Shown piece by piece: positions 868 through 29,716 of a stretch of 32,000 nucleotides of DNA. Within the stretch, counting starts at the first letter, position 1; each line of letters opens with the position of its first letter. The notes under the pieces were generated by a model, which made no database searches, was not told the DNA's origin, and saw nothing but the letters and a program-made list of their open reading frames with translations. Source of the stretch: Nanoarchaeum equitans Kin4-M. Lineage in GTDB: Archaea; Nanobdellota; Nanobdellia; Nanobdellales; Nanoarchaeaceae. The stretch is taken from assembly GCA_000008085.1 (NCBI GenBank), contig AE017199.1, positions 120,001 to 152,000 on the forward strand, given 5' to 3'. A program made the translations under genes and the position numbers.

Positions 868-1935
868 ATGGAAGAGTTTATCCGAGCTGCACAGGAAAGA
901 GCAAAGATGGATGAAAAACAACAAATAGATGAATATCTTAATAGAATAAAGAAAAAAATTAAAGTTATTGGTGTCGGGGGTGCTGGATGCAATACTATTA
1001 ATAGGTTATATGAATTAGGCTTACAAGATGTTGAACTAATTGCAGTTAATGCAGATGTAAAAGATTTGGCTAAAATAAAAGCTCATAAAAAAGTATTAAT
1101 AGGAGAAGAAGTTACTCGTGGTTTGGGTACAGGAAGAGACCCCGAATTAGGAGAACAAGCTGCAAGGGAAAGTGAGAAAGTAATAAAAGAGCTATTGCAA
1201 GGAACAGATATGGTTTTTATTACTTTTGGCCTTGGTGGGGGCACAGGAACTGGGGCTGGCCCAGTTATTGCTGATATAGCCAAACAAATGGGTATACTAA
1301 CAGTAGCCGTAGTGAGTTGGCCCTTTTCTAGTGAGGGTAATTTAACATTAAGAAACGCCCAATGGGGATTAGCAAGATTAGAAGAAACTACCGATACACA
1401 TATAGTTATACCAAACGATAAATTATTAGAAATAGCGCCTAATTTACCAATTGCTGTAGCATTTAAATTAAGCGATGAAGTTTTAGCTAACACTATTAAA
1501 AAAACCACAGAGTTAATATTAAAACCTGGCCAAGTCACAAGAGATTTCGCAGATTTGAAAGTAATATTAGAGAATGGCGGTTTAGGTATGGTTGGCTTTG
1601 GAGAATCCGATTCGGAAAACAAAGCATTAGAAGCTATTGAGAGAGCAATAAACAATCCATTATTGGATACAGATGTTAGTGGGGCGAAAAGGGCTTTGTT
1701 GCACATAGTTGCAGGCCCCGACTTTAAAACAGAGGAATTAAACAAAATATTAGAATATGTTAGCAATAAACTAGACCCAGAAGCGAAATTATTATGGGGT
1801 CTATGGATTGAAGAGGAAAAGAAAGGCAAAGTCGAAATAATGATTTTAGTAACAGAGCTAAAGAATGTACCCGATTATCTAAAAATAAGCGAAAAAAGAA
1901 AGAAGAAAGATGAATTAGGAATAGATGTTATCTAA
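868..1935 (+). CDS. ftsZ: Cell division GTPase FtsZ
   Basis: GVGGAGCNTINR and the tubulin signature GLGGGTGTGAGPVIA, plus VIPNDKLLEI. TTTAAT at 841..846 lies at -27..-22. Confidence 0.95.
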   Translation: MEEFIRAAQERAKMDEKQQIDEYLNRIKKKIKVIGVGGAGCNTINRLYELGLQDVELIAVNADVKDLAKIKAHKKVLIGEEVTRGLGTGRDPELGEQAARESEKVIKELLQGTDMVFITFGLGGGTGTGAGPVIADIAKQMGILTVAVVSWPFSSEGNLTLRNAQWGLARLEETTDTHIVIPNDKLLEIAPNLPIAVAFKLSDEVLANTIKKTTELILKPGQVTRDFADLKVILENGGLGMVGFGESDSENKALEAIERAINNPLLDTDVSGAKRALLHIVAGPDFKTEELNKILEYVSNKLDPEAKLLWGLWIEEEKKGKVEIMILVTELKNVPDYLKISEKRKKKDELGIDVI

Positions 1936-2527
1936 TTTTGTTCGCTCTTAGTACAATCTCTTTATTTTTTTCGTCTCTAAAACAAGAGTATATGTACTTT
2001 TCTGCACAGTATATTTGAGAAGTATCACAACTCTCCTCCGAAGGAACTATAAGGATATACCCCCTACCACTTATAAATTCACCACCTATAATTTTACAAA
2101 AATATCTTCCATATTTTCCTAAAATTGTTGCATGATATATGTACACTACCTTAGATTTGTTTGCTTCTATGTAGATAGGATAAAAACAAACCACTTCTCT
2201 ATATAGCTCCGTAATTTTTGAAGGTAAGTTCTTTTTTAGTTTGTTTGTAAGGGCAACTAAATCAAGATATTTTCCAGTCTGATTTCGAATAGTGGAATCT
2301 TCTATATAATACCTTAAAAGGTAGCCTGCACTTACTTTTACAGCTTTGCATGCCATCTCTGCCTCTCTAACATCGTACAGAAAATCTAAAAAGTTTTGCT
2401 TGTTTGCTTGGAGTTTGTCAACTATGATACCTAAAGCAAAGATCACCCATATTAAAATGTAAAAAAATAAAGTTATATACGCTAGCATTGTATATAACCG
2501 CCATATTTTATGCTTTTTATATTGCAA
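1928..2527 (-). CDS. Cys-rich membrane-anchored hypothetical protein (operon member E)
   Basis: One N-terminal hydrophobic helix, 6 Cys, and the motif RYFCKIIGGEFISG shared with its neighbours. An alternative ATG at 2488 overlaps the upstream stop (ATGCTAG). Its 3' end overlaps ftsZ by 8 nt. Confidence 0.6.
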   Translation of the reverse strand: MQYKKHKIWRLYTMLAYITLFFYILIWVIFALGIIVDKLQANKQNFLDFLYDVREAEMACKAVKVSAGYLLRYYIEDSTIRNQTGKYLDLVALTNKLKKNLPSKITELYREVVCFYPIYIEANKSKVVYIYHATILGKYGRYFCKIIGGEFISGRGYILIVPSEESCDTSQIYCAEKYIYSCFRDEKNKEIVLRANKIR

Positions 2528-3342
2528 CTATACTTTTTCCCATTTATTATAGTTTCCATTGTCGGAACACCAGTTACAGGGCTCCCTTCAATATATTTTT
2601 TTACTTCCTCCTTATTAGATGTAGAAATGGAGTCACAGCTACCTTCAATTTTCCCGTTTTTTATCTCAAAATTCCCTTGACATAGTATAGTAGTAATTTC
2701 TATAGTGCTGGTTTTTTCTTCAATTTTGATTGGAGGATTGTTGTAAATTATCTCATCAAATGGATTGCAAAAATAGTTTTGTGCGAATTCCCCTCCAATG
2801 TTGTTACAAATTTCTTTAGAAACAGGAGAGATACAGAAATAGTATTCATTACCTGCACTCCTTTTTACTAAGCAACTACCTTCATCTTTGGATGGTATTA
2901 CATTATTGTATTCGAACACATCTTCACAATACAAGTATTGGGGTAATAACTTATAGGGATTAACGTTATAATATAGAATATCGAAGGTGTTTAGCTTTAT
3001 GTAAGTAAATAAACATATTGTTTTTTTGCCTTTTAATGCTAAACTTACTGGTATAACAATATAGGGCAGGTCATTTATACATTTAGCGTATAGCTGGGGT
3101 AAAACAGAAACCAAATCTTTATAACACATGTGCAATATTTTTGGATTTTTTAATATAGAACAATCTAAAGAGAATTTATAGTTAGCACATATCTGTTTAG
3201 CGTGCTCTTTAATTATATTTGATTCCCATTGCTTCGATGGAATTTTAGTTTTTTCGAAAACACTATTCATTAATATTAAAGAGAATGCTGCCCCTATTAG
3301 TCCAATAAGAATATATACTATTGTGCTAATCGCGCCTCGCAT
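2482..3342 (-). CDS. Cys-rich hypothetical protein with a prepilin-like N-terminus (operon member D)
   Basis: Starts MRGAISTIVYILIGLIGAAFSLIL. 14 Cys. The motif EYYFCISPVSKEICNNIGGEFAQNYFC is encoded at 2767..2844. Confidence 0.65.
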   Translation of the reverse strand: MRGAISTIVYILIGLIGAAFSLILMNSVFEKTKIPSKQWESNIIKEHAKQICANYKFSLDCSILKNPKILHMCYKDLVSVLPQLYAKCINDLPYIVIPVSLALKGKKTICLFTYIKLNTFDILYYNVNPYKLLPQYLYCEDVFEYNNVIPSKDEGSCLVKRSAGNEYYFCISPVSKEICNNIGGEFAQNYFCNPFDEIIYNNPPIKIEEKTSTIEITTILCQGNFEIKNGKIEGSCDSISTSNKEEVKKYIEGSPVTGVPTMETIINGKKYSCNIKSIKYGGYIQC

Positions 3343-4844
3343 GTTTCTAAATCAATAACACATACATCTCCGGTTTCGATTTTGTTACTTTTATCAATAA
3401 TAGCCTCTCCACTATTCTGTATATGTAAATATCTTTCTTCGATAGTATCCAATGGTTTACCATTGTTGAACAAATTTCCTATATCGCAGTATACTTTTTT
3501 TTGATTAACTATTGCATCTTTTACCCTAGAGAGCAAGGTGTTAAAATCCAAATTTTTCTTTTCGGCGCATTCTTTTATTTTTCTAATACAATCTATTTTC
3601 AATGTATAAAAGTTATTAACATGTATAGCATTGTCCCTTAGTATTGCTATATTATGCAATAATGTGTTGATTGCTTTCACATAGCAGTTATAATTTTTTT
3701 TGAAGTTATTGATGTTATCATTACTCTTCAAATCATCTTTGTTTAAACAAAAATCGTTTAAGACATCGGAGAGCCTTTTGTCAGAACTAAGACACCTCAC
3801 TGGAGTATCAATGGTATCGACAATGTTATCTTCTATAATCTTGCACCCCAACAAATTATTTATCTCGTTAGCTAGATTGTATAATTTACTGTTAGAACCT
3901 GTTTTAAAACCACTACCGCAATCAAAATAGTCTTTTATAGCACTTTCTAAACTATTGGCCAAGCTTTCAAAAAAGTCTCTCCTCTTTTGGTTTTCATAAT
4001 TAGTAATAGCAGTAAAGATGTCACAATCTTTACCACTACAGTAATCTATAGTTTTTTTATAATCATTCAGCCTACCCTCTAATCCAAGGCTTCCTATCCA
4101 ACTGCTAAAAGCATTTTGTATATCTTTATTTTCCACTCTAGTCCCATCGGAAGAGTCTATGTGGTACTGAGTATCATAGTATACTTCTGTGTTTATAGCA
4201 TAGAGGAAACTAGTGCAAAACCTTAGAGGCATAGGTTTTCCAAAATGTTTACAAACCTCTAATGGAACAGGGGTAACACAATAATATTGTTTATTGTATA
4301 CATAACAATCTACTAAAGTATTACCCAATTTTAATTGTTCTAAGAAATAGGTTATAAAACCTTCCTTTTCGGATAAAGCTTTATAACAAGTTAAATAATA
4401 ATTGTAATTGTCAATATTTGTTATAACCGCTTTTTTTAATTTCGTTTTGTCCTCTTCTTTTATATTTTCCCTATAAATAAACTTATATACTGCTTGTATG
4501 CAATGGTTATCTTTTGTTACAGCCAATGGCAAATAAAACCCTTCTGGAAGGTCTTCTCTAAATAATATTTCTAAAGCTTTTATTTTGTTATACCTATCTT
4601 CTAACCTAGCTATGGGTTGTAAATTAATTGGATACTCTATATTAATAGTAGGGTTTTCTTTTGGTGTGGCAAATTTTACCAATTCCACGCTAGTAAGTTG
4701 TTCTATGTTCTTTTTACTTTTCAATGTTGAAAAAGATAAATAACCAACTATTGCAATAGCCAATAATATTAGTATTATATATTTAATTTCATCGAATATC
4801 GCTCTCATTTTATTATATTTTGGTTGGTTTTTAAATAATAGCAA
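3318..4844 (-). CDS. Cys-rich hypothetical protein with a prepilin-like N-terminus (operon member C)
   Basis: 18 Cys and the motif QYYCVTPVPLEVCKHFGKPMPLRFC. The likely true start is the ATG at 4808, which forms an ATGA overlap with the upstream stop (4805..4808) and gives MRAIFDEIKYIILILLAIAIVG. Confidence 0.65.
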   Translation of the reverse strand: MLLFKNQPKYNKMRAIFDEIKYIILILLAIAIVGYLSFSTLKSKKNIEQLTSVELVKFATPKENPTINIEYPINLQPIARLEDRYNKIKALEILFREDLPEGFYLPLAVTKDNHCIQAVYKFIYRENIKEEDKTKLKKAVITNIDNYNYYLTCYKALSEKEGFITYFLEQLKLGNTLVDCYVYNKQYYCVTPVPLEVCKHFGKPMPLRFCTSFLYAINTEVYYDTQYHIDSSDGTRVENKDIQNAFSSWIGSLGLEGRLNDYKKTIDYCSGKDCDIFTAITNYENQKRRDFFESLANSLESAIKDYFDCGSGFKTGSNSKLYNLANEINNLLGCKIIEDNIVDTIDTPVRCLSSDKRLSDVLNDFCLNKDDLKSNDNINNFKKNYNCYVKAINTLLHNIAILRDNAIHVNNFYTLKIDCIRKIKECAEKKNLDFNTLLSRVKDAIVNQKKVYCDIGNLFNNGKPLDTIEERYLHIQNSGEAIIDKSNKIETGDVCVIDLETCEARLAQ

Positions 4845-5575
4845 TAGCCTTTAGCGCTATCGGATGAAGCTCTATACACAGTAATTATCTTTCTAACTTC
4901 TGTATCTATTTGTACATTGCTTGGTCTGCTATAGAAATAGCAGACATAATAGTTAACAGTAAGCAATTTCATTGTTGGCGATCCATCTACTATATACCCA
5001 GAAGGAGTATAATAGTATATATTATCTTTTTGAATTGGGAATAGGCTATCTAAAACTATTACTAATTCATCAATGGATGGTAAGCTATTTATATAATCTA
5101 TACAGTGCCTCCATCTAAGGATTTTACCTCCAATCCTATAACAATAGGGTTGGTTTGCTTCTAATAATATTGTACCTTTAGAACTGTCGACCCTACAACA
5201 ATAGCTATCTACTACTGGTTTAGTTCCTACTATACCATATCTTATTAAAGCCAATAAATTACCTCTATACTCTTTTGGTATTAGCCTATCGCTTTCCCAT
5301 AGGCCTAAAGAGTCGTGGGCTAATAAATAGGATACCTTTGCGTAAGGCATAGGGGATTCATCGATAGCATAAGGGTAAAAAGTATCGCTTATAATTAAGA
5401 AATACCTATAAGGATTATAATCAAATTCCAAAGGTTTTATCTTATCGCTTATTCCTTTGGTTGTTTTATTTATGGATTGGGCTGTGTTGTTGAATACTAT
5501 ACTAACTACTCCTAAAAACATTATTAGTATTATTAGAGAACCTAACCAAGAGATCATTTTACTAAATCTAAACAA
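4805..5575 (-). CDS. Cys-rich membrane-anchored hypothetical protein (operon member B)
   Basis: 6 Cys, including a CC doublet and PYCYRIGGKILRWRHC. An alternative ATG at 5557 forms an ATGA overlap with the upstream stop (5554..5557). Confidence 0.6.
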   Translation of the reverse strand: MFRFSKMISWLGSLIILIMFLGVVSIVFNNTAQSINKTTKGISDKIKPLEFDYNPYRYFLIISDTFYPYAIDESPMPYAKVSYLLAHDSLGLWESDRLIPKEYRGNLLALIRYGIVGTKPVVDSYCCRVDSSKGTILLEANQPYCYRIGGKILRWRHCIDYINSLPSIDELVIVLDSLFPIQKDNIYYYTPSGYIVDGSPTMKLLTVNYYVCYFYSRPSNVQIDTEVRKIITVYRASSDSAKGYCYYLKTNQNIIK

Positions 5576-7263
5576 TCACGCTCTACCCAAATACCTGTGC
5601 AACCAGCTGGATCGTTAGAAGTGTTAAAGAGTAACTGTTCTTTAATGTTATCCCATTTAATGCAACAAAATCCATTATCTATTGATTCGTTAACTGTTAC
5701 TTTTATATTACCCCAGTTTTCCTTGTTTATAATCAAATAGTTTTTGTAGATCCCATTACCCTCTTTAGGAAGAGTTTTTATTGTTTCGCAATTATTAATG
5801 TATGCGGGAAACACATATATGTTGGGATAACCGAATTTAATAAGTTTTACTATTAATAGGCCATTCTTTTCTTCTATAGGCAAAATATCGATTTGTCCAT
5901 TTAAGGCATTACATATCTCTTCTGGAGCTTCTATAGCTATTAAGCCTTTTTCACAAGGTATTTTGCAAACTTTCCCACTATCGATAATATTTAAATCGTA
6001 TATGCTATATTTAAACTCGGTATTGGCTTTTTCGAAATATTTACTTACTATATTCTCTATTTTCTCTTCTTCAATCCAACAAAGTTTTCCGAATTCCCCT
6101 ATTGTGTAAGAGGTTTTTACTGGCACGTTATTGGCAATTTGTTTGGCAGGGGCAAAATATTGGTTACATATATATACCTTGTTCATACTATTTACTAAGT
6201 CCTTGTATCCTTCATCTTTTGGAGAAATAACATCTACTTTGGTTAAAAATATCTCACTTTCCCAACCGTTTATTGTTTTTCTTGGTATGTCTGGGGAAAC
6301 AGCTTCCAATAGATTGTTTTTAATTATAAAACCTCTATCTACCTTGTACATAAATTCGTTGTAGTCTAAGAATAGCCAATAGAATCTATCAGGATTTAAT
6401 TGAGACCACACCAAATCTCTATATCTAACACAAAAATCTCTATTAGATGGGAAAACTTTTTTATCAGCGATTTCGCCTTTTTTGATAAACGCTACGCATT
6501 TTCCTACTTTTAATGCGTCTACTTTTAGATCCAAATCAGGAGTACGTGAGATCGTTTCAGCTTTTTCCTCTAAAAAATTAATTTTTTCGTTTTCATCCTT
6601 TTCTATAAATTGCTTCAGAATATCTCCATTCCGTAAACTATTAATTTTTACTCCATCTTTTATTTTATAACATAGAGTTGAAACTTTCACATAATTGTCT
6701 GCCTCATTGGGATTCATCTTTATTAATTTTCTGTTTGTATCGTCATATAAAAACAATATATAGCCTTTGTATTGTTTATTGCGTTCATCATAAGATATAT
6801 TATGTATATAGCCTTGGCTGAATAGTTTCAAACAGTCATCAAATTTTATGTTTATCTCACTTATTCCATTATATATAGCGTAAACTATATTTAATTTTCC
6901 TGCACTTATGTCTATATTTTTAGTTTTAGGATGATCATCTTTATCAACAAAGTTAATTTCGAAAGAATTAGAAGAGAGCAAAGTTTGGGAAAGTTTCCAA
7001 GTGTATTTCTCTAGTATAGGCTTACTATAAGGGGGAGCCCTCCTAAAGGGATCATATTTATAAGATAAAGTAAACTCTATGGGCTTCTCCTCTATAGATG
7101 GGGCAAAATTCTCTGTAGCAGTTTCTCCAACTTCTTTTGCTTGTTTAGATAAAGCCGCTAATGGATTTACTGTTTTGAAAAAACTGAAAGATATTATTGC
7201 TATAGACATTAGAGCAACAACTATTGCAGAGATTAGCCATATTATATTGGATAGGGCCCTCAC
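5554..7263 (-). CDS. Large Cys-rich hypothetical protein with a prepilin-like N-terminus (operon member A, first gene)
   Basis: GTG start giving MRALSNIIWLISAIVVALMSIAII. 14 Cys. VCKIPCEKGLIAIEAPEEICNALNGQI. TTTAAA at 7285..7290 lies at -27..-22. Confidence 0.65.
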   Translation of the reverse strand: MRALSNIIWLISAIVVALMSIAIISFSFFKTVNPLAALSKQAKEVGETATENFAPSIEEKPIEFTLSYKYDPFRRAPPYSKPILEKYTWKLSQTLLSSNSFEINFVDKDDHPKTKNIDISAGKLNIVYAIYNGISEINIKFDDCLKLFSQGYIHNISYDERNKQYKGYILFLYDDTNRKLIKMNPNEADNYVKVSTLCYKIKDGVKINSLRNGDILKQFIEKDENEKINFLEEKAETISRTPDLDLKVDALKVGKCVAFIKKGEIADKKVFPSNRDFCVRYRDLVWSQLNPDRFYWLFLDYNEFMYKVDRGFIIKNNLLEAVSPDIPRKTINGWESEIFLTKVDVISPKDEGYKDLVNSMNKVYICNQYFAPAKQIANNVPVKTSYTIGEFGKLCWIEEEKIENIVSKYFEKANTEFKYSIYDLNIIDSGKVCKIPCEKGLIAIEAPEEICNALNGQIDILPIEEKNGLLIVKLIKFGYPNIYVFPAYINNCETIKTLPKEGNGIYKNYLIINKENWGNIKVTVNESIDNGFCCIKWDNIKEQLLFNTSNDPAGCTGIWVERDCLDLVK

Positions 7264-7284
7264 TAAGATAAATAAATAACCCCA

Positions 7285-7290
7285 TTTAAA
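7285..7290. promoter_or_regulatory. Shared palindromic TATA-like element (ATTTAAAT) between 7263(-) and 7309(+)
   Basis: 45-bp spacer. The hexamer ends 22 nt from the GTG at 7263 and 19 nt from the ATG at 7309. Confidence 0.45.
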
Positions 7291-7308
7291 TACTAAGTGC
7301 AGTTAAGT

Positions 7309-8406
7309 ATGAAGCCTATAATAGAATACTATTTGCAAAAATATAACAAAACAATCAATATAAGCGATATAGCAAAATTGGTTAAACATAACTCTAACAT
7401 CTCCATAAAGAATATAACTATTGAGAATAACATCTCTATAGGCATACCAAAAAGCCCTAGTATAGATTTTAATCTATCCTATTTGTTTGTTTTGGCGATT
7501 ATTATTTTTCTTATAAAGTTTAGGGGGTTGTTTAGCCCCAACCCATTGAAAAGGTTCATTTATTTGCTAAAATTGCTAGGCAAAAAATATTATGAATCGA
7601 ATAGAGAATTTATTAGAAAATCCATATTTAAGAAATATTTAGAAAAGAAAAATAGATTATTCGAAAAACATATATTCCTTCTATTTTTGTTTGGAGGTTT
7701 CTCGAAGACAATTTTAATAGAAAAAGACCAATTTTTATGTAATCCTAATTATTCTATCTTAAATTATATAGATAAGGATTTGCTTAAGCGATACCCAGAA
7801 TATTCAATGTTTTTTGTTTACAATGGGTATATTTTTAATATGGCTTCCGAAGTTGAAGGTATTCCAATATTAAAGGGCTATTTTGGGATATGGAATTTCA
7901 GTTCTAAAAAATGTGAAAACTATAAAGAAAGAACTTTGATAGCGTATAAAGACAATAATATAATAATTGGAGACAAAGAGTTTTTCATTTATAATAAAAA
8001 GTTAAATATAGACTTTAATGCCTTGGATTTGGCCAAATTTCTATATAACCAATTCAAAAACATAAACATTCCAATAAACATAAATATTTACCAATATATA
8101 AAGGGATTGTCTATACCAATAGCTTATTTGTTTTATGTTTTTATGACTATGTTTTTGCTGTTTAGGATCAAAAATATTAAAATAAGAAAGCCGAAAGTAG
8201 ATATTAATTTTTGGGGGTTGGAGTTATACAAATTAACTGGAGATAAAAAATATTTGGAAAGAAAAATTAATGTTTTGTTTTATATTATAGAGCGTATAAA
8301 ACTTCTTTCAAATAATAATAAACAGCTATCGTTAAGGCAATCCCTAACAAGGTTAAAATTAGGCCTGCCCAAAAGTATAAATCGGTTTTTGGTAAAAAGG
8401 GGCTGA
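7309..8406 (+). CDS. Hypothetical membrane protein (about 3 hydrophobic segments)
   Basis: The ORF track starts at GTG 7297, but the ATG at 7309 fits the promoter spacing better. No family recognised. The last ~40 codons overlap the convergent gene 8285..8998. Confidence 0.45.
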   Translation: MKPIIEYYLQKYNKTINISDIAKLVKHNSNISIKNITIENNISIGIPKSPSIDFNLSYLFVLAIIIFLIKFRGLFSPNPLKRFIYLLKLLGKKYYESNREFIRKSIFKKYLEKKNRLFEKHIFLLFLFGGFSKTILIEKDQFLCNPNYSILNYIDKDLLKRYPEYSMFFVYNGYIFNMASEVEGIPILKGYFGIWNFSSKKCENYKERTLIAYKDNNIIIGDKEFFIYNKKLNIDFNALDLAKFLYNQFKNINIPININIYQYIKGLSIPIAYLFYVFMTMFLLFRIKNIKIRKPKVDINFWGLELYKLTGDKKYLERKINVLFYIIERIKLLSNNNKQLSLRQSLTRLKLGLPKSINRFLVKRG

Positions 8407-8998
8407 TCCCTATAAGGTTATAAACCAAAGTAGATAGTATATTATTAATTAAAGGCTCTATATAGAAATAATTTATTAGCAAAGCTATCCCGATGGGAAT
8501 TAAAATAGAGACCAAAAAATATAATTGATAGCTATTCTCTTCTAAGGCCCTTTTTATAAATACTGCTATCGATATTATAGCTAAAACCAAGGGGATAAAC
8601 AGTTTATTTAATATAGACTTTAATCTATTCGCTATAGAATCATAAGAGTTTTGTAATATAGCATACCATTTGTTTGCTAAAAATGTTAATATATTATTTT
8701 TAACCACTTCGGGTTTTTCTAATAAGTCTTTACAACTAACTTCGTATGGGTATTCTAGATTTTCTTTAACATATTGCTTTAGCAAAGGTTCTGTATATTT
8801 AGGATTAATCCTACAACTATATTGGTATTGCATTAACGATATTACCATTGGCATATAGAATTGTTTCCTATTGTTTTCGATTAGTTGTTTTACTTTGTTC
8901 GGGGCATTATCTATTATTGGATAGGCAAATAAAGGGGTTAAACCGATAGTTAATAATATAAGACCAATTATTAGCTCTATCATTTCCAGAATTGCCAC
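8285..8998 (-). CDS. Polytopic membrane protein, unknown function
   Basis: Several hydrophobic helices. The probable start is the ATG at 8983, which forms an ATGA overlap with the upstream stop (8980..8983). Confidence 0.55.
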   Translation of the reverse strand: MAILEMIELIIGLILLTIGLTPLFAYPIIDNAPNKVKQLIENNRKQFYMPMVISLMQYQYSCRINPKYTEPLLKQYVKENLEYPYEVSCKDLLEKPEVVKNNILTFLANKWYAILQNSYDSIANRLKSILNKLFIPLVLAIISIAVFIKRALEENSYQLYFLVSILIPIGIALLINYFYIEPLINNILSTLVYNLIGISPFLPKTDLYFWAGLILTLLGIALTIAVYYYLKEVLYAL

Positions 8999-9858
8999 TC
9001 TCTAAAGTAAAAGTCGTTCGACACTATTATGTATAACTCTTTTGGATTAAGTATTTTTCCGTTTTGGGGCTCAAAATAAGTACAATTGTTTTTTTGGTTT
9101 GGCAATAATGGTTTGTCACATATAGCTGTAATACAATGGCCCAAGGTTTCATTTATTTTATAGCAAACTATCGATGGGTTTTTTATTTCTATTGTATAAG
9201 CTTTAGCGTTGGGCAAATAATATATAGTATTACCTTCTTTGTATAAATAAAGCTTACTATTGTTCTGTTTAACATAAAAAGTTATTTTCTTATAACCGTT
9301 TCTAGCTAAATAATATATTAGGGAATAAGCAAACAAACTCCAATCTTCACAATCCCCTCCTTTAGTTCTAATAAATTCGTCAACACTTTCTAAATAATCG
9401 CCGCTCTCTTTTTTATAAGAGAAACCCAATTTATTTTGCATTATATTAACTAGGCAAGCGTAGTTAAGGGTATCATTGTTGGTACATTTATCTAATGGCA
9501 AATCTGTAAAATTATAGTTTTGCGCTTTTATTAGGAATTTAATTCTATCATTGTTAGAATACTGTGATTCCAGATTGGTTAATTTTAACCTTAAATAATA
9601 ATTCTCGGATTCTAATTTTTTGTTTTGTTCTTCCAATTTTTTTATAGTTTCGTTTTTAGTCTCTAATAAACCAATAGTTTGGTTATATTTTTTTAAAAGA
9701 CTACCATATTGGCTTTTCAAACTGTTTAGATTATCCAATAGGGTTTTTAGTTTGTGCTCTTTATATTTAAGCTGGAAATATAAATAACCACCTATAGCTA
9801 ATAACATAATTAATGGCAAAGCAAATAGTAAACGAAATATCTTAAATATGAAGAACAT
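8980..9858 (-). CDS. Membrane-anchored coiled-coil protein with a possible transglutaminase-like / papain-fold cysteine peptidase domain
   Basis: N-terminal helix, then a heptad-like stretch (LKTLLDNLNSLKSQ...LESENYYLRLKLTNLESQ), then GGDCEDWSLFAYSLIYYLARNGY (Cys170), later GHCITAI and YFEPQNG. This resembles the C...H...D/E layout of the transglutaminase core. 7 Cys. Confidence 0.4.
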   Translation of the reverse strand: MFFIFKIFRLLFALPLIMLLAIGGYLYFQLKYKEHKLKTLLDNLNSLKSQYGSLLKKYNQTIGLLETKNETIKKLEEQNKKLESENYYLRLKLTNLESQYSNNDRIKFLIKAQNYNFTDLPLDKCTNNDTLNYACLVNIMQNKLGFSYKKESGDYLESVDEFIRTKGGDCEDWSLFAYSLIYYLARNGYKKITFYVKQNNSKLYLYKEGNTIYYLPNAKAYTIEIKNPSIVCYKINETLGHCITAICDKPLLPNQKNNCTYFEPQNGKILNPKELYIIVSNDFYFREWQFWK

Positions 9859-20259: not shown

Positions 20260-23145
20260 TTAAATAACATAAAAGTTGCCTTGTTTTAGAAGTTCTATCT
20301 TTTCTTTTGGTAGTTGTATTTTATATAGATCAATACATCTTAGTATTTCTTTTGCGTCTCTAGCTAAATATATACATCTTTTCCATTCAGGAATAGAGAA
20401 ATTGTTCGGATAAATTGTTTTGTAAATTTTTATTGGTTGTATTTCCCATGTTATGGCATGTTTATTATAGAGGGTTAACAAACTATATATATTCCTTATG
20501 TTTCTGCCTATTGCTCTATAGCCATCGTAAAATTTAAAGTATTTAGAATTGTCAAAGAAATAAAGCTTAACCCATAGCATATTTTCTGCTTTATTCATAA
20601 AGAATCCATAGAAATACCAGTTTGCATAAGAAGGCTTTTTAAATTCCATTGCTTTGCCAAACAATAATGTATTTTCCAAATCTATAGTTGGAGCTAAATA
20701 CAAACAACCATAGCCATTTTTGTTTAGTATTATCTTTTTATCAAAGATATAAACGCATCTTAATGGATAAGCCCTTTCATTTATTGCTTTAATTCCATAC
20801 GGGGTAGGTATTATGTCATACATGTATATTGTGCCATTAACTGGAATAGCATATTTCAAATCATTTGAAGTCAATACTACTAGTTTTTTCCCAAATTTAA
20901 CCCAAGGGTTTGCATAGCCTATTTCTGTTTTATACAAAGTGTGCGCTATATAATAATATTGGGTTGCAGTTCCATTTATTATTGGTTTGTCAAATTCTAG
21001 TTTTATTTTTAGAACATGTGAACAATAATTGCCATTAACATCTGGTATGCATTTTTCACCATAGTTTTCATCATCGTTCGGGAAATCTAATATATATTCT
21101 ATAGTATTATTGTTTATTACTTTTGCTTTCGCCCTTGTCACTATAGTAAATATATCGTAGTTTTCGTTACTTCCTAATTTAAGGAAAGCTTGGCTTTTAC
21201 CTATATCGGTATAATGTATTAATAAATATGTAGGTCTCGTCCCATTATAATTGTATTTAACATTTACTCCGAACCACTCTTTTAGTTTCTCTTTTATTGT
21301 GCTATTAAAGTTGGCATGTGCATATAATAATTCTAATGCCTCTGTTTCATTGTATGTGCCTAAAACATACCTACCAAATAGATGGTTCCAATAGGGATAA
21401 TAATTACCCCCATCTAAAAAAGTAACTCTATTTGTTTTGCCCAATATATTAGCAAAATATTGAGTTATATATCCATAATCCCACCAATGCGTTATTAAAG
21501 CATCTTTTTCCATTTTGTTAAATATTTGTTTTAACCCTATCCAATCTATTTCGCCTAAAGCGAATACTGGTTTTACAAAATAACCAGTAACAAATAATAA
21601 AGAAGCAAACAATATAGAACTAATAGATGGGAATAAGAACATAGCTAATATTGTTGTACCTACTGGTATAGCAGTTATTGGGTTTATATGTTTGTAATAC
21701 ACTAGAATTATTAGTATGGACAAAGCTATCGATACATATTTTATATATTTCTTGTTTATGTTCAAGTTTTCCAATTTTTTAAAAGCGTAACCAACAAGAA
21801 TTGGGACAGCAAAAGCACTGTAAAATATGGTTCTAACTGCTATTTGCCCTATAGCTAAGAAAAACATATTGCTTAATACAAATATTTTAGATAAGTTGGG
21901 CTTAGTGTAAAATATATTATACAAAATTATAACTAAATAAAATAATAAACTAGGTTTAAAACCAATTACATAGAAAGAGGCTAGTACATAGAACGCTAAT
22001 AAAATACTTTCCGTTAATGTTTCTCCAGCCAAGAATGCAGATATTACGGTAAAAGCTATACCAACCCATTCTAATGAATCATACCAATCTATAAATTGAG
22101 TGGGTCTTGCCTCAGCTACTGTGGACATAAATCTATTACCTGAATAAATATTAGACATTTTTAGTCTTTCAATTATAGATGGGAATAGGGGCATCAAAAA
22201 TAACAACGATAATATTGTATATAACATTAGTTTGTGGGTTTTGTCTTTTATTTTTAGCCTAGTTTCTAAAAATTCAGCTAATCCTAATGTGAATAATAAT
22301 ATACCACTAGCATATTGGGATGTATGCAAAACCCAAGGGGTTATATTTAAAGCGTAAGCGATAGCCATAACAAAGAATATGCTTAAACCCGGTATAACAA
22401 ATTCTTTTATTGGCTTATTGTGTATCCATCTTAATAACTCCATTATTTCTAGAGCGAATATAAATACAGCAGAGCCACCCCATGCTAAATAAAGAGAAAC
22501 AATCGATACTAATAAACTAATGGAATATAAAATTTTGTATTTTGGATTTGTTTCTTTTATTAGCCTATAATAAAGGAATAAAATTAAAATATAAAGAAAA
22601 GAAGCAATTGGTTCCTTTTCGAATCTTCCTGCTAATAATCTATAACCATTAGCAGGAAATACCGCAAATAGCAAAGCTGGTAGCCCAGTTCCAACCAATT
22701 CTTTAGATATATAATAGTATAAGATAACAGACAAACCGAAAAAGAATGGATTAGCTAATAATACAACCAAATTTTCGTAATTGTATATAGAAGTATTTAG
22801 ACCGAAAAAGTTTGCTATTAGCGATAAAAGCATAGTTAAGGGTTTTAGAAAATATAATACTATTGGATATAGAAAATGAACAGGATGTGGTGGAGTACTA
22901 CAGAAAGGAACATAGGCTAAACAATCTGGGAATATATTTATACCATGTAATACACTAAGGAAATATCTATAAGCCCTATAAGGATCTGGGCCGAGCAATT
23001 CTTCGGGATAAAGAGAACCTATTGTTACCGCTTTAAATAGAAATCCAGATAGAAATAACAGAATTAAAAATACAGGTTCTTTGTATTTTTCAATTTTTTC
23101 TAGCATTTTTAATCGAATTTGTGTTTTAGTCTTAGTCTGGGCCAT
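20260..23145 (-). CDS. aglB: Archaeal oligosaccharyltransferase AglB (STT3 family)
   Basis: 961 aa with a long polytopic N-terminal region followed by the catalytic motif THWWDYGY. The start overlaps the rpoB' 3' end; an alternative ATG lies at 23106. Confidence 0.85.
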   Translation of the reverse strand: MAQTKTKTQIRLKMLEKIEKYKEPVFLILLFLSGFLFKAVTIGSLYPEELLGPDPYRAYRYFLSVLHGINIFPDCLAYVPFCSTPPHPVHFLYPIVLYFLKPLTMLLSLIANFFGLNTSIYNYENLVVLLANPFFFGLSVILYYYISKELVGTGLPALLFAVFPANGYRLLAGRFEKEPIASFLYILILFLYYRLIKETNPKYKILYSISLLVSIVSLYLAWGGSAVFIFALEIMELLRWIHNKPIKEFVIPGLSIFFVMAIAYALNITPWVLHTSQYASGILLFTLGLAEFLETRLKIKDKTHKLMLYTILSLLFLMPLFPSIIERLKMSNIYSGNRFMSTVAEARPTQFIDWYDSLEWVGIAFTVISAFLAGETLTESILLAFYVLASFYVIGFKPSLLFYLVIILYNIFYTKPNLSKIFVLSNMFFLAIGQIAVRTIFYSAFAVPILVGYAFKKLENLNINKKYIKYVSIALSILIILVYYKHINPITAIPVGTTILAMFLFPSISSILFASLLFVTGYFVKPVFALGEIDWIGLKQIFNKMEKDALITHWWDYGYITQYFANILGKTNRVTFLDGGNYYPYWNHLFGRYVLGTYNETEALELLYAHANFNSTIKEKLKEWFGVNVKYNYNGTRPTYLLIHYTDIGKSQAFLKLGSNENYDIFTIVTRAKAKVINNNTIEYILDFPNDDENYGEKCIPDVNGNYCSHVLKIKLEFDKPIINGTATQYYYIAHTLYKTEIGYANPWVKFGKKLVVLTSNDLKYAIPVNGTIYMYDIIPTPYGIKAINERAYPLRCVYIFDKKIILNKNGYGCLYLAPTIDLENTLLFGKAMEFKKPSYANWYFYGFFMNKAENMLWVKLYFFDNSKYFKFYDGYRAIGRNIRNIYSLLTLYNKHAITWEIQPIKIYKTIYPNNFSIPEWKRCIYLARDAKEILRCIDLYKIQLPKEKIELLKQGNFYVI

Positions 23146-29250: not shown

Positions 29251-29420
29251 TAATCATCTTCTTCCTCTTCTACTTCTTCATATAGATCTTCCATATATTC
29301 TTCATATTCCTCATCGTACTCCTCTTCTTCTTCCTCTTCGGGTAATTTCTTTTTATCTAAGATGTCCATGGCACTATTTATGATGGGATTTTGTTTAAAA
29401 GTTAGTATTTTTAAATACAA
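29202..29420 (-). CDS. Small poly-acidic Glu/Tyr-rich protein
   Basis: ...MDILDKKKLPEEEEEEEYDEEYEEYMEDLYEEVEEEEDDYYIDEEFEELEEIEEE. The start is uncertain (TTG 29420 or ATG 29369). It is the last gene of the CaCA-like operon. Confidence 0.45.
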   Translation of the reverse strand: MYLKILTFKQNPIINSAMDILDKKKLPEEEEEEEYDEEYEEYMEDLYEEVEEEEDDYYIDEEFEELEEIEEE

Positions 29421-29716
29421 CGAATATCTTTTTTATTATAAACATATAGAATGGGTTTGCCATTTTTTAGCTTAACAAAGCCAAATCCCTCAATTTTTAC
29501 ACAATTAATCTTTATGCCTTTCATTTCTATGCATTTGTCATAGCAAATTCGATAGTAACACCAATCGTTAATACATTGTTTGTATTTTATTTCGCCCATA
29601 AATTTTACCCTTTCTCCCATATACTCTTTTATATCTCTAAAATTTATGGGCTTTTGCAAATTTTGTATAATAAATAAAATTGCTATGCCAAAAACTGCCA
29701 ATAAGTTATACCGCAT
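29411..29716 (-). CDS. Small secreted or anchored Cys-rich protein, unknown function
   Basis: Starts MRYNLLAVFGIAILFII and has 6 Cys (CINDWCYYRICYDKC...). It overlaps the upstream gene by 11 nt. Confidence 0.5.
   Translation of the reverse strand: MRYNLLAVFGIAILFIIQNLQKPINFRDIKEYMGERVKFMGEIKYKQCINDWCYYRICYDKCIEMKGIKINCVKIEGFGFVKLKNGKPILYVYNKKDIRCI

Follow-up and report, generated by a model that had tools for sequence, protein, structure and literature searches.

The stretch of DNA analysed here (hereafter the window) comprises 32,000 nucleotides of the Nanoarchaeum equitans Kin4-M genome (GenBank contig AE017199.1, positions 120,001 to 152,000). On its minus strand lie five consecutive, overlapping open reading frames (ORFs), labelled A to E, whose products match NEQ137 (A), NEQ136 (B), NEQ135 (C), NEQ134 (D) and NEQ132 (E) exactly. 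The reading that we favour, at a probability of roughly 0.55, is that they encode envelope proteins specific to this lineage, co-translated, anchored at the N-terminus and stabilised by disulfides, which arose by duplication and probably form a single complex. The evidence for this comes from the coupling of the genes, a single hydrophobic helix at the start of every product, cysteine positions kept in a distant relative from hydrothermal vents, and similarity among the five proteins.

Five overlapping genes and their products

Reading the minus strand bears out the ORF coordinates and gene arrangement given in a preliminary description of the window, which was made from the sequence alone and placed overlaps at all four junctions. 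The TGA of A overlaps the ATG of B as ATGA (5554-5557), and the same overlap joins the TGA of B to the ATG of C (4805-4808). The ATG of D lies 25 nt inside C (3318-3342), while the ATG of E overlaps the TAG of D as ATGCTAG (2482-2488). With lengths counted from these coupled starts, the five genes are as follows.

Gene A (NEQ137), 5554..7263, minus strand: 569 aa, GTG start, helix at residues 3-29, 14 Cys, juxtamembrane motif EKPIEFTLSYKYDPFRR, C-terminal half conserved
Gene B (NEQ136), 4805..5557, minus strand: 250 aa, ATG overlapping the stop codon of A, 6 Cys, N-terminal helix without a leader (M-ISWLGS...)
Gene C (NEQ135), 3318..4808, minus strand: 496 aa, ATG overlapping the stop codon of B, 18 Cys, start MRAIFDEIKY...
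Gene D (NEQ134), 2482..3342, minus strand: 286 aa, 14 Cys, start MRGAISTIVY...
Gene E (NEQ132), 1928..2488, minus strand: 186 aa, ATG within ATGCTAG, 6 Cys, helix without a K/R-G/A site

The five ORFs are real, expressed genes. All of the products were detected in whole-cell proteomics of the Ignicoccus-Nanoarchaeum system, with 145, 24, 248, 43 and 2 spectra for A to E, respectively, in purified N. equitans cells (PMC3149612, supplement). The table of that study places none of the five in an arCOG, predicts all of them to be transmembrane, and predicts a signal peptide for A and B only. Apart from this proteomics table, searching the literature by locus tag turned up no publication that discusses the five genes.

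A relative in hydrothermal-vent metagenomes

The preliminary description recognised no known family among the five, and this held throughout our searches. Scans of the five proteins and their neighbours against Pfam, NCBIfam and PHROGs gave no credible match, and neither sequence nor profile searches of the PDB with the cluster proteins found one. With A, D and a B-family profile as queries, word-indexed searches of 5.8 billion proteins returned only N. equitans itself and a vent relative. When C was compared exhaustively with 1.8 billion cluster representatives by phmmer, one distant relative came back (E = 1.7e-10).

This relative of C sits on a 3.3-kb hydrothermal-vent metagenome contig from an uncultured lineage. 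The contig carries A-like, B-like and C-like genes in the order found in N. equitans, the A-like product being 28% identical to A (E = 1e-57) and the B-like product 38% identical to B (E = 5e-56), and the same arrangement recurs on three more short contigs from other vent samples. The G+C content of the relative is 30%, as in N. equitans. Its contigs end inside the C-like gene, and the comparison covers the A-like, B-like and partial C-like genes. The coupled starts of B and C are supported by the relative, in which the ATGA overlap of A and B is kept (contigs L011, L012 and L013) and the C-like protein begins M-K-V-R-A-I-V-D-E. Between two variants of the relative, dN/dS is 0.18 for the A-like, 0.10 for the B-like and 0.30-0.37 for the C-like gene.

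Conservation is uneven along C. The relative keeps the N-terminal domain, up to about aa 262; the remainder (window 3318-4100) holds 10 of the 18 Cys, is poorly conserved over the part that the relative's contigs cover, and is mostly helical in a low-confidence AlphaFold prediction. The relative's C-like protein has few Cys in the part matching this C-terminal half.

In two vent samples (L011 2285-2460 and L014 143-320), an additional A lengthens an A-run of the C-like gene just past the membrane helix, and nearby substitutions give an in-frame ATG (MGSTIM...) right after the frameshift. The shifted gene thus encodes a 57-aa helix peptide and a helix-less product of 234 aa, while the gene is intact in two other samples (L012 from 1429, L013 from 959). 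The split form may represent a true allele, a pseudogene or a site of slippage.

For D, the word-indexed search found no homologue, and every other contig on which D occurs belongs to N. equitans itself, sampled in mock communities or co-cultures. GTDB genomes and JGI metagenomes, scanned twice each, gave no confirmed further locus; the scans are weak negatives, since they relied on a few exact peptide patterns, with which N. equitans, L012 and L013 were themselves not recovered. Terrestrial nanoarchaea did not show the family in these searches. Since only one vent lineage was found, the family is known only from the Nanoarchaeum lineage.

Conserved cysteines

A recount gave 14, 6, 18, 14 and 6 Cys for A to E, the numbers first described, which amount to 2.4-4.9% of residues. 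The recognisable cytoplasmic proteins of the window contain 0-1.1% Cys, except for a 148-aa helix-turn-helix (HTH) protein with four (2.7%). Cys-rich proteins with an N-terminal helix are, within the window, A to E, NEQ140 and a 101-aa protein at 29411-29716.

Cysteines are retained in the vent relative at 11 of 13 aligned positions in A, all six in B and seven of 12 in C (24/31 in total), against a non-Cys identity of 30-38% in the same alignments. All conserved Cys of C fall within its N-terminal domain. As judged from sequence, this conservation and the association with a helix would fit the pattern expected of structural disulfides in exported domains. CxxC spacing is absent from all five proteins, and we rejected metal-binding proteins as an identity for them on that ground.

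Sequence similarity among the five proteins

The Cys-module motifs named in the preliminary description are present in all five proteins, at the following positions.

5890..5967, minus strand: Cys module of A, aa 433-458, CKIPCEKGLIAIEAPEEICNALNGQI
5102..5200, minus strand: Cys module of B, aa 120-152, CCRVDSSKGTILLEANQPYCYRIGGKILRWRHC
4215..4307, minus strand: Cys module of C, aa 168-198, CYVYNKQYYCVTPVPLEVCKHFGKPMPLRFC
2767..2874, minus strand: Cys module of D, aa 157-192, CLVKRSAGNEYYFCISPVSKEICNNIGGEFAQNYFC
2027..2098, minus strand: short motif of E, aa 131-154, CKIIGGEF...C

Pairwise similarity was measured as Smith-Waterman scores against 300 composition-preserving shuffles, with the helices removed. 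Two pairs stood out, A-B (z = 4.3, p about 0.002) and C-D (z = 4.0, p about 0.003), and the other eight pairs showed no significant similarity by this measure. BLASTP among the five aligned only C162-201 with D155-195 (E = 0.003, in a tiny database).

Profile comparisons with hhalign gave E = 3.8e-4 for the C family against D and 0.0086 for the A family against the B family, with weaker values for B against D (0.014), E (0.03) and C (0.09). The top match lay on the Cys module for the B family against A, C, D and E and for the C family against D. For the A family against the C family, the top match was a juxtamembrane motif (A 48-64 against C 48-63, E = 0.0012). A and B also have in common the motif KP[IL]EF..Y.P[FY]R just after the anchor, as had been noticed at the outset; it is echoed in the relative's B-like protein, which has FVLSENPNRY against FTLSYKYDPFRR.

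A hidden Markov model (HMM) built with one family left out located the module in the omitted protein every time. The number of shuffles per 1000 reaching the leave-one-out score was 1-3 for A, 0 for D, 21-147 for B, 45-136 for C and 91 for E, values that are optimistic because the segments were picked by similarity. C-x3-G-G occurs in three of the five (B, D and E; P = 1.5e-4 in shuffles, for a motif defined after seeing the data), with the variants C-x3-N-G in A and C-x3-G-K in C, and G-G is present in the relative's C-like and B-like proteins. A scan of all six frames of the window located C-x2-[ILVF]-[GN]-G in A, B, D, E and a single antisense ORF, and nowhere else.

Taken individually, neither the membership of E nor the link between A/B and C/D was significant. 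From these comparisons A and B, and likewise C and D, are probable paralogue pairs, and a common origin of A, B, C and D is likely. The five-member paralogous family initially put forward thus stands for the two pairs, as the shuffle tests indicate, while the five-way motif is only suggestive and the place of E is weak.

Promoters and transcription

The box A consensus of N. equitans is TTTAAA, located 26-27 nt upstream of mapped transcription starts (PMC3491384). In the cluster, two such boxes lie at this distance from a start codon.

7285..7290, minus strand: box A TTTAAA, 5' end 27 nt upstream of the GTG start of A
4830..4835, minus strand: second TTTAAA, inside the 3' end of B, 5' end exactly 27 nt upstream of the ATG of C

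The spacing of the first box predicts a leaderless mRNA beginning at G 7263 and supports the GTG start of A. The second, a candidate internal promoter for a leaderless C-D-E transcript, corrects the preliminary description, in which the only promoter-like box lay upstream of A. TTTAWA occurs 13 times on the minus strand and TTTAAA only six times in 5.5 kb, and we estimate the chance of a TTTAAA at -26/-27 of any of the four internal starts at about 0.01. C, which follows this box, is the most abundant of the five products (248 spectra). The box before C is not kept as TTTAAA in the vent relative.

The single 5.3-kb transcript proposed earlier is not assured, because of the second box 27 nt before the start of C. 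Two units (A-B and C-D-E), or read-through combined with an internal promoter, are no less likely.

The TTTAAA at 7285-7290 is palindromic and lies in the 33-nt gap (7264-7296) between A and a divergent plus-strand gene, for which other gene callers choose the ATG at 7309 as the start. One box may therefore serve two divergent leaderless transcripts. At the other end of the cluster, the 3' ends of E and the convergent ftsZ overlap by 8 nt (1928-1935), leaving no space for separate terminators.

Membrane anchoring and the weighing of the envelope interpretation

Each of the five proteins has exactly one strongly hydrophobic segment, at its extreme N-terminus, in agreement with the preliminary description, and A, C and D begin MRA, MRA and MRG. 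In their single, presumably uncleaved N-terminal helix and their spread, conserved and even-numbered Cys, the proteins resemble generic type II signal-anchored proteins. That term is a description, not a family, and it leaves the R-G/A site, the juxtamembrane motif and the gene coupling unexplained. Other lineage-specific envelope proteins of N. equitans likewise have no assigned family and were detected in the same proteome; they differ in being 10-50 times more abundant and in being encoded elsewhere in the genome.

Several points weigh against the interpretation as an anchored envelope complex. The charges flanking the helix are ambiguous by the positive-inside rule, with more lysines after the helix in C and A. 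N-x-S/T sequons are not enriched in the five proteins, and C has none where 4.7 are expected (p = 0.007), a depletion not seen in the relative. A hot, sulfidic, reducing habitat makes extracellular disulfides less than self-evident. AlphaFold2 models of the B family (three sequences, mean predicted local distance difference test score 49.8) and of C (two sequences, 39.5) were too poor for use, and a Foldseek search of the PDB with the poor B model gave nothing below E = 0.28, its matches being meaningless. For E there is an ORF, a helix, a short motif and two spectra, and almost nothing further. We infer the formation of a complex from gene coupling only, and a role in contact with or attachment to Ignicoccus is plausible but speculative.

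Alternative interpretations

The proteins might instead be true type IV pilin-like subunits, an explanation that we consider unlikely on balance. They would carry a class III signal with a minimal MR-G/A leader processed by a membrane peptidase. A short pilus or pseudopilus would be built from them by one of the organism's two orphan type IV pilus ATPase/TadC systems, and in it they would resemble minor pilins or a tip complex and mediate attachment to Ignicoccus. The N-termini lend themselves to this. The site in A (RAL), C (RAI) and D (RGA) combines R at -2 and G/A at -1 with a hydrophobic residue at +1, and the relative carries an R-G/A site in its B-like (MRG-I/V, thus RGI/RGV) and C-like (MKVRA-I, thus RAI) proteins; the R-A site of C is retained despite the different leader length (MRA against MKVRA). 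About 20 hydrophobic residues follow directly, and then a globular domain, as in archaeal class III proteins, with which the cluster also shares a very short basic N-terminus and tandem genes. Residues -2, -1 and +1 matter for archaeal prepilin peptidases (PMC3387779). According to a review, the N. equitans genome has pilus-biosynthesis homologues and FlaFind-positive substrates. Among its expressed proteins are NEQ267 and NEQ268, which are of the Flp-pilus type. Two type IV pilus ATPases of the organism have no assigned pilins (PMC4858521).

Other observations count against it. A strict FlaFind-type pattern attributed to Szabo et al. 2007, [KRDE][GA][ALIFQMVED][ILMVTAS]x3, fits only D (RGAIST), and A, B, C, E and both homologues of the relative fail it. 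Neither B nor E has a K/R-G/A site from either of its possible starts, B lacks any leader (M-ISW...), and the leader of the others in N. equitans is three residues long. No pilin, archaellin or class III N-terminal model matched, whether full proteins (E <= 1) or isolated 50-residue N-termini (E <= 10) were searched; the models were Pilin_N, Class_IIIsignal and Arch_flagellin of Pfam and the archaeal flagellin N-terminal-like domain of NCBIfam. Archaeal pilins of 186-569 aa with 6-18 Cys would be atypical, and N. equitans is not known to carry pili. With abundances about 50-fold below that of the S-layer protein, none of the five is a major filament subunit. As first described, the 32-kb window contains no assembly ATPase, no PilC-like gene and no prepilin peptidase, which our scans of it, covering VirB11-type and TadC genes too, bore out; the ATPases are encoded elsewhere in the genome. 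For the two nanoarchaea that it covered, a published census records no prepilin peptidase of the A24 family (PibD/FlaK/EppA) (PMC4858521). The class III signals of the preliminary description are not established: an R-[G/A]-hydrophobic site is present in A, C and D, of which only D fits the strict pattern and none matches an N-terminal model.

The gene order offers a further comparison. In bacteria, the minor-pilin operons GspH-I-J-K of type II secretion and FimU-PilV-W-X of type IV pili consist of four to five consecutive, often overlapping helix-first genes whose products form one low-abundance complex, and the tandem arrangement of A to E recalls them in favour of a pilin-like role. The cluster differs in lacking homology to these proteins, Glu at +5, an N-methylation motif and adjacent machinery genes; it belongs to another domain of life, and its products are much larger.

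More doubtful again is a specific form of the pilin idea, in which the five would be the absent pilin-like subunits of the two orphan type IV pilus machineries and would build a short, disulfide-braced pseudopilus or tip complex that attaches to Ignicoccus hospitalis. The three-residue MR-G/A leader would then be cut by an unrecognised peptidase, or stay uncut, and either would explain the lack of an A24 peptidase in nanoarchaea.

It is quite improbable that the proteins are tethered to the membrane but face the cytoplasm or have nothing to do with the surface, with Cys that bind metal or form intracellular disulfides and a function in some internal membrane-associated process. The helix-flanking charges of A and C, which show no clear preference for an internal N-terminus, and the lack of sequon enrichment would suit such an arrangement, and intracellular disulfides are documented in several hyperthermophilic archaea. 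SignalP-type calls, moreover, were positive only for NEQ136 and NEQ137 (PMC3149612). Against it stand the Cys-poor composition of the window's recognisable cytoplasmic proteins, the small HTH protein apart, and the N-terminal helix of all its Cys-rich proteins with that same exception. Neither CxxC nor any other metal-binding spacing is present, and restriction to one lineage with fast divergence is typical of surface proteins.

That annotation artefacts, or genes decaying in a reduced genome, account for some or all of the ORFs, as the lack of homologues in almost all databases and the two spectra and missing relative of E might suggest, is extremely improbable and for A to D effectively refuted, given peptides for all five, 28-38% identity of A, B and C to a relative with Cys and gene order kept, dN/dS of 0.10-0.37, and intact frames of 186-569 codons in a genome of 31% G+C, where stop codons are frequent.

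Genomic surroundings and neighbouring genes

The cluster is placed between ftsZ and three further orphan membrane-protein genes that precede the thermosome gene (NEQ141); its neighbours also include a translin-like gene and topoisomerase VI B. Its G+C content is the same as that of its flanks. A mobile or viral island was rejected on the basis of this G+C content, the ftsZ and thermosome flanks and the lack of any PHROG match.

NEQ140 (8980-9858, minus strand) shares 4 nt with the membrane-protein gene that comes next. Its N-terminal helix is joined by a coiled coil at about aa 30-105 and by a Cys-rich domain with KGGDCEDWSLFAY ... GHCITAI ... FEPQNG. From its sequence this domain looks like a transglutaminase-like Cys-His-acid core, for which the sole support is a weak PDB match to 4fgo ('Periplasmic protein', E = 0.12), an entry that we take to be the adhesin-cleaving protease LapG. 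NEQ140 contains seven N-x-S/T sequons against 2.8 expected, and it could be a putative surface protease or cross-linker functionally linked to the adjoining cluster. It was detected with 147 spectra in purified cells (PMC3149612).

A plus-strand ORF at 7297-8406 encodes two hydrophobic segments and eight sequons against 2.7 expected. It converges with a multi-pass membrane ORF at 8285-8998 (minus strand), with an overlap of 122 nt (8285-8406), and both were detected at low level by proteomics (PMC3149612). Further away, a 101-aa ORF at 29411-29716 (minus strand) has an N-terminal helix (MRYNLLAVFGIAILFII) and 6 Cys (5.9%), without C-x3-G-G, and its product is probably exported. The 961-aa multi-pass protein encoded at 20260-23145 (minus strand) matches the STT3/AglB core domain only below threshold (E = 3.4e-4, 21.6 bits where the cutoff is 23). 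A divergent oligosaccharyltransferase is its probable identity, which bears on whether neighbouring surface proteins are glycosylated.

A model for the cluster and its meaning for Nanoarchaeum

Under the favoured interpretation, the five proteins probably form a hetero-oligomeric envelope complex between the cytoplasmic membrane and the S-layer. Transcription would start 26-27 nt past TTTAAA, giving a leaderless mRNA from the GTG of A and probably a second from the ATG of C. As the overlaps suggest, B, D and E, and C on read-through, would be translated by termination-reinitiation, which would coordinate the synthesis of the subunits. Each protein would be inserted through its single N-terminal helix, leaving its bulk outside, and the conserved cysteines, by their conservation and spacing, would hold the ectodomains together. 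The pairs A/B and C/D may go back to old duplications, and the common juxtamembrane motif and C-x3-G-G module make it probable that the proteins are packed next to one another. The best candidate for a lineage-specific contact surface would be the C-terminal half of C, which is Cys-rich and diverges fast.

Since 2002 it has been an open question how the parasite recognises and holds Ignicoccus, and none of the proteins of N. equitans has been identified as an adhesin or contact protein. The cluster offers a short list of candidates that are expressed, anchored, lineage-restricted and under purifying selection, among them C with its fast-diverging outer half. It also bears on a published gap, namely that N. 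equitans keeps two type IV pilus ATPases for which neither pilins nor a prepilin peptidase have been found. Should the R-G/A N-termini undergo processing, the proteins would represent a new class of pilin with a minimal leader; should they not, the proteins would still be a new disulfide-rich envelope family in a hyperthermophile of a reducing habitat.

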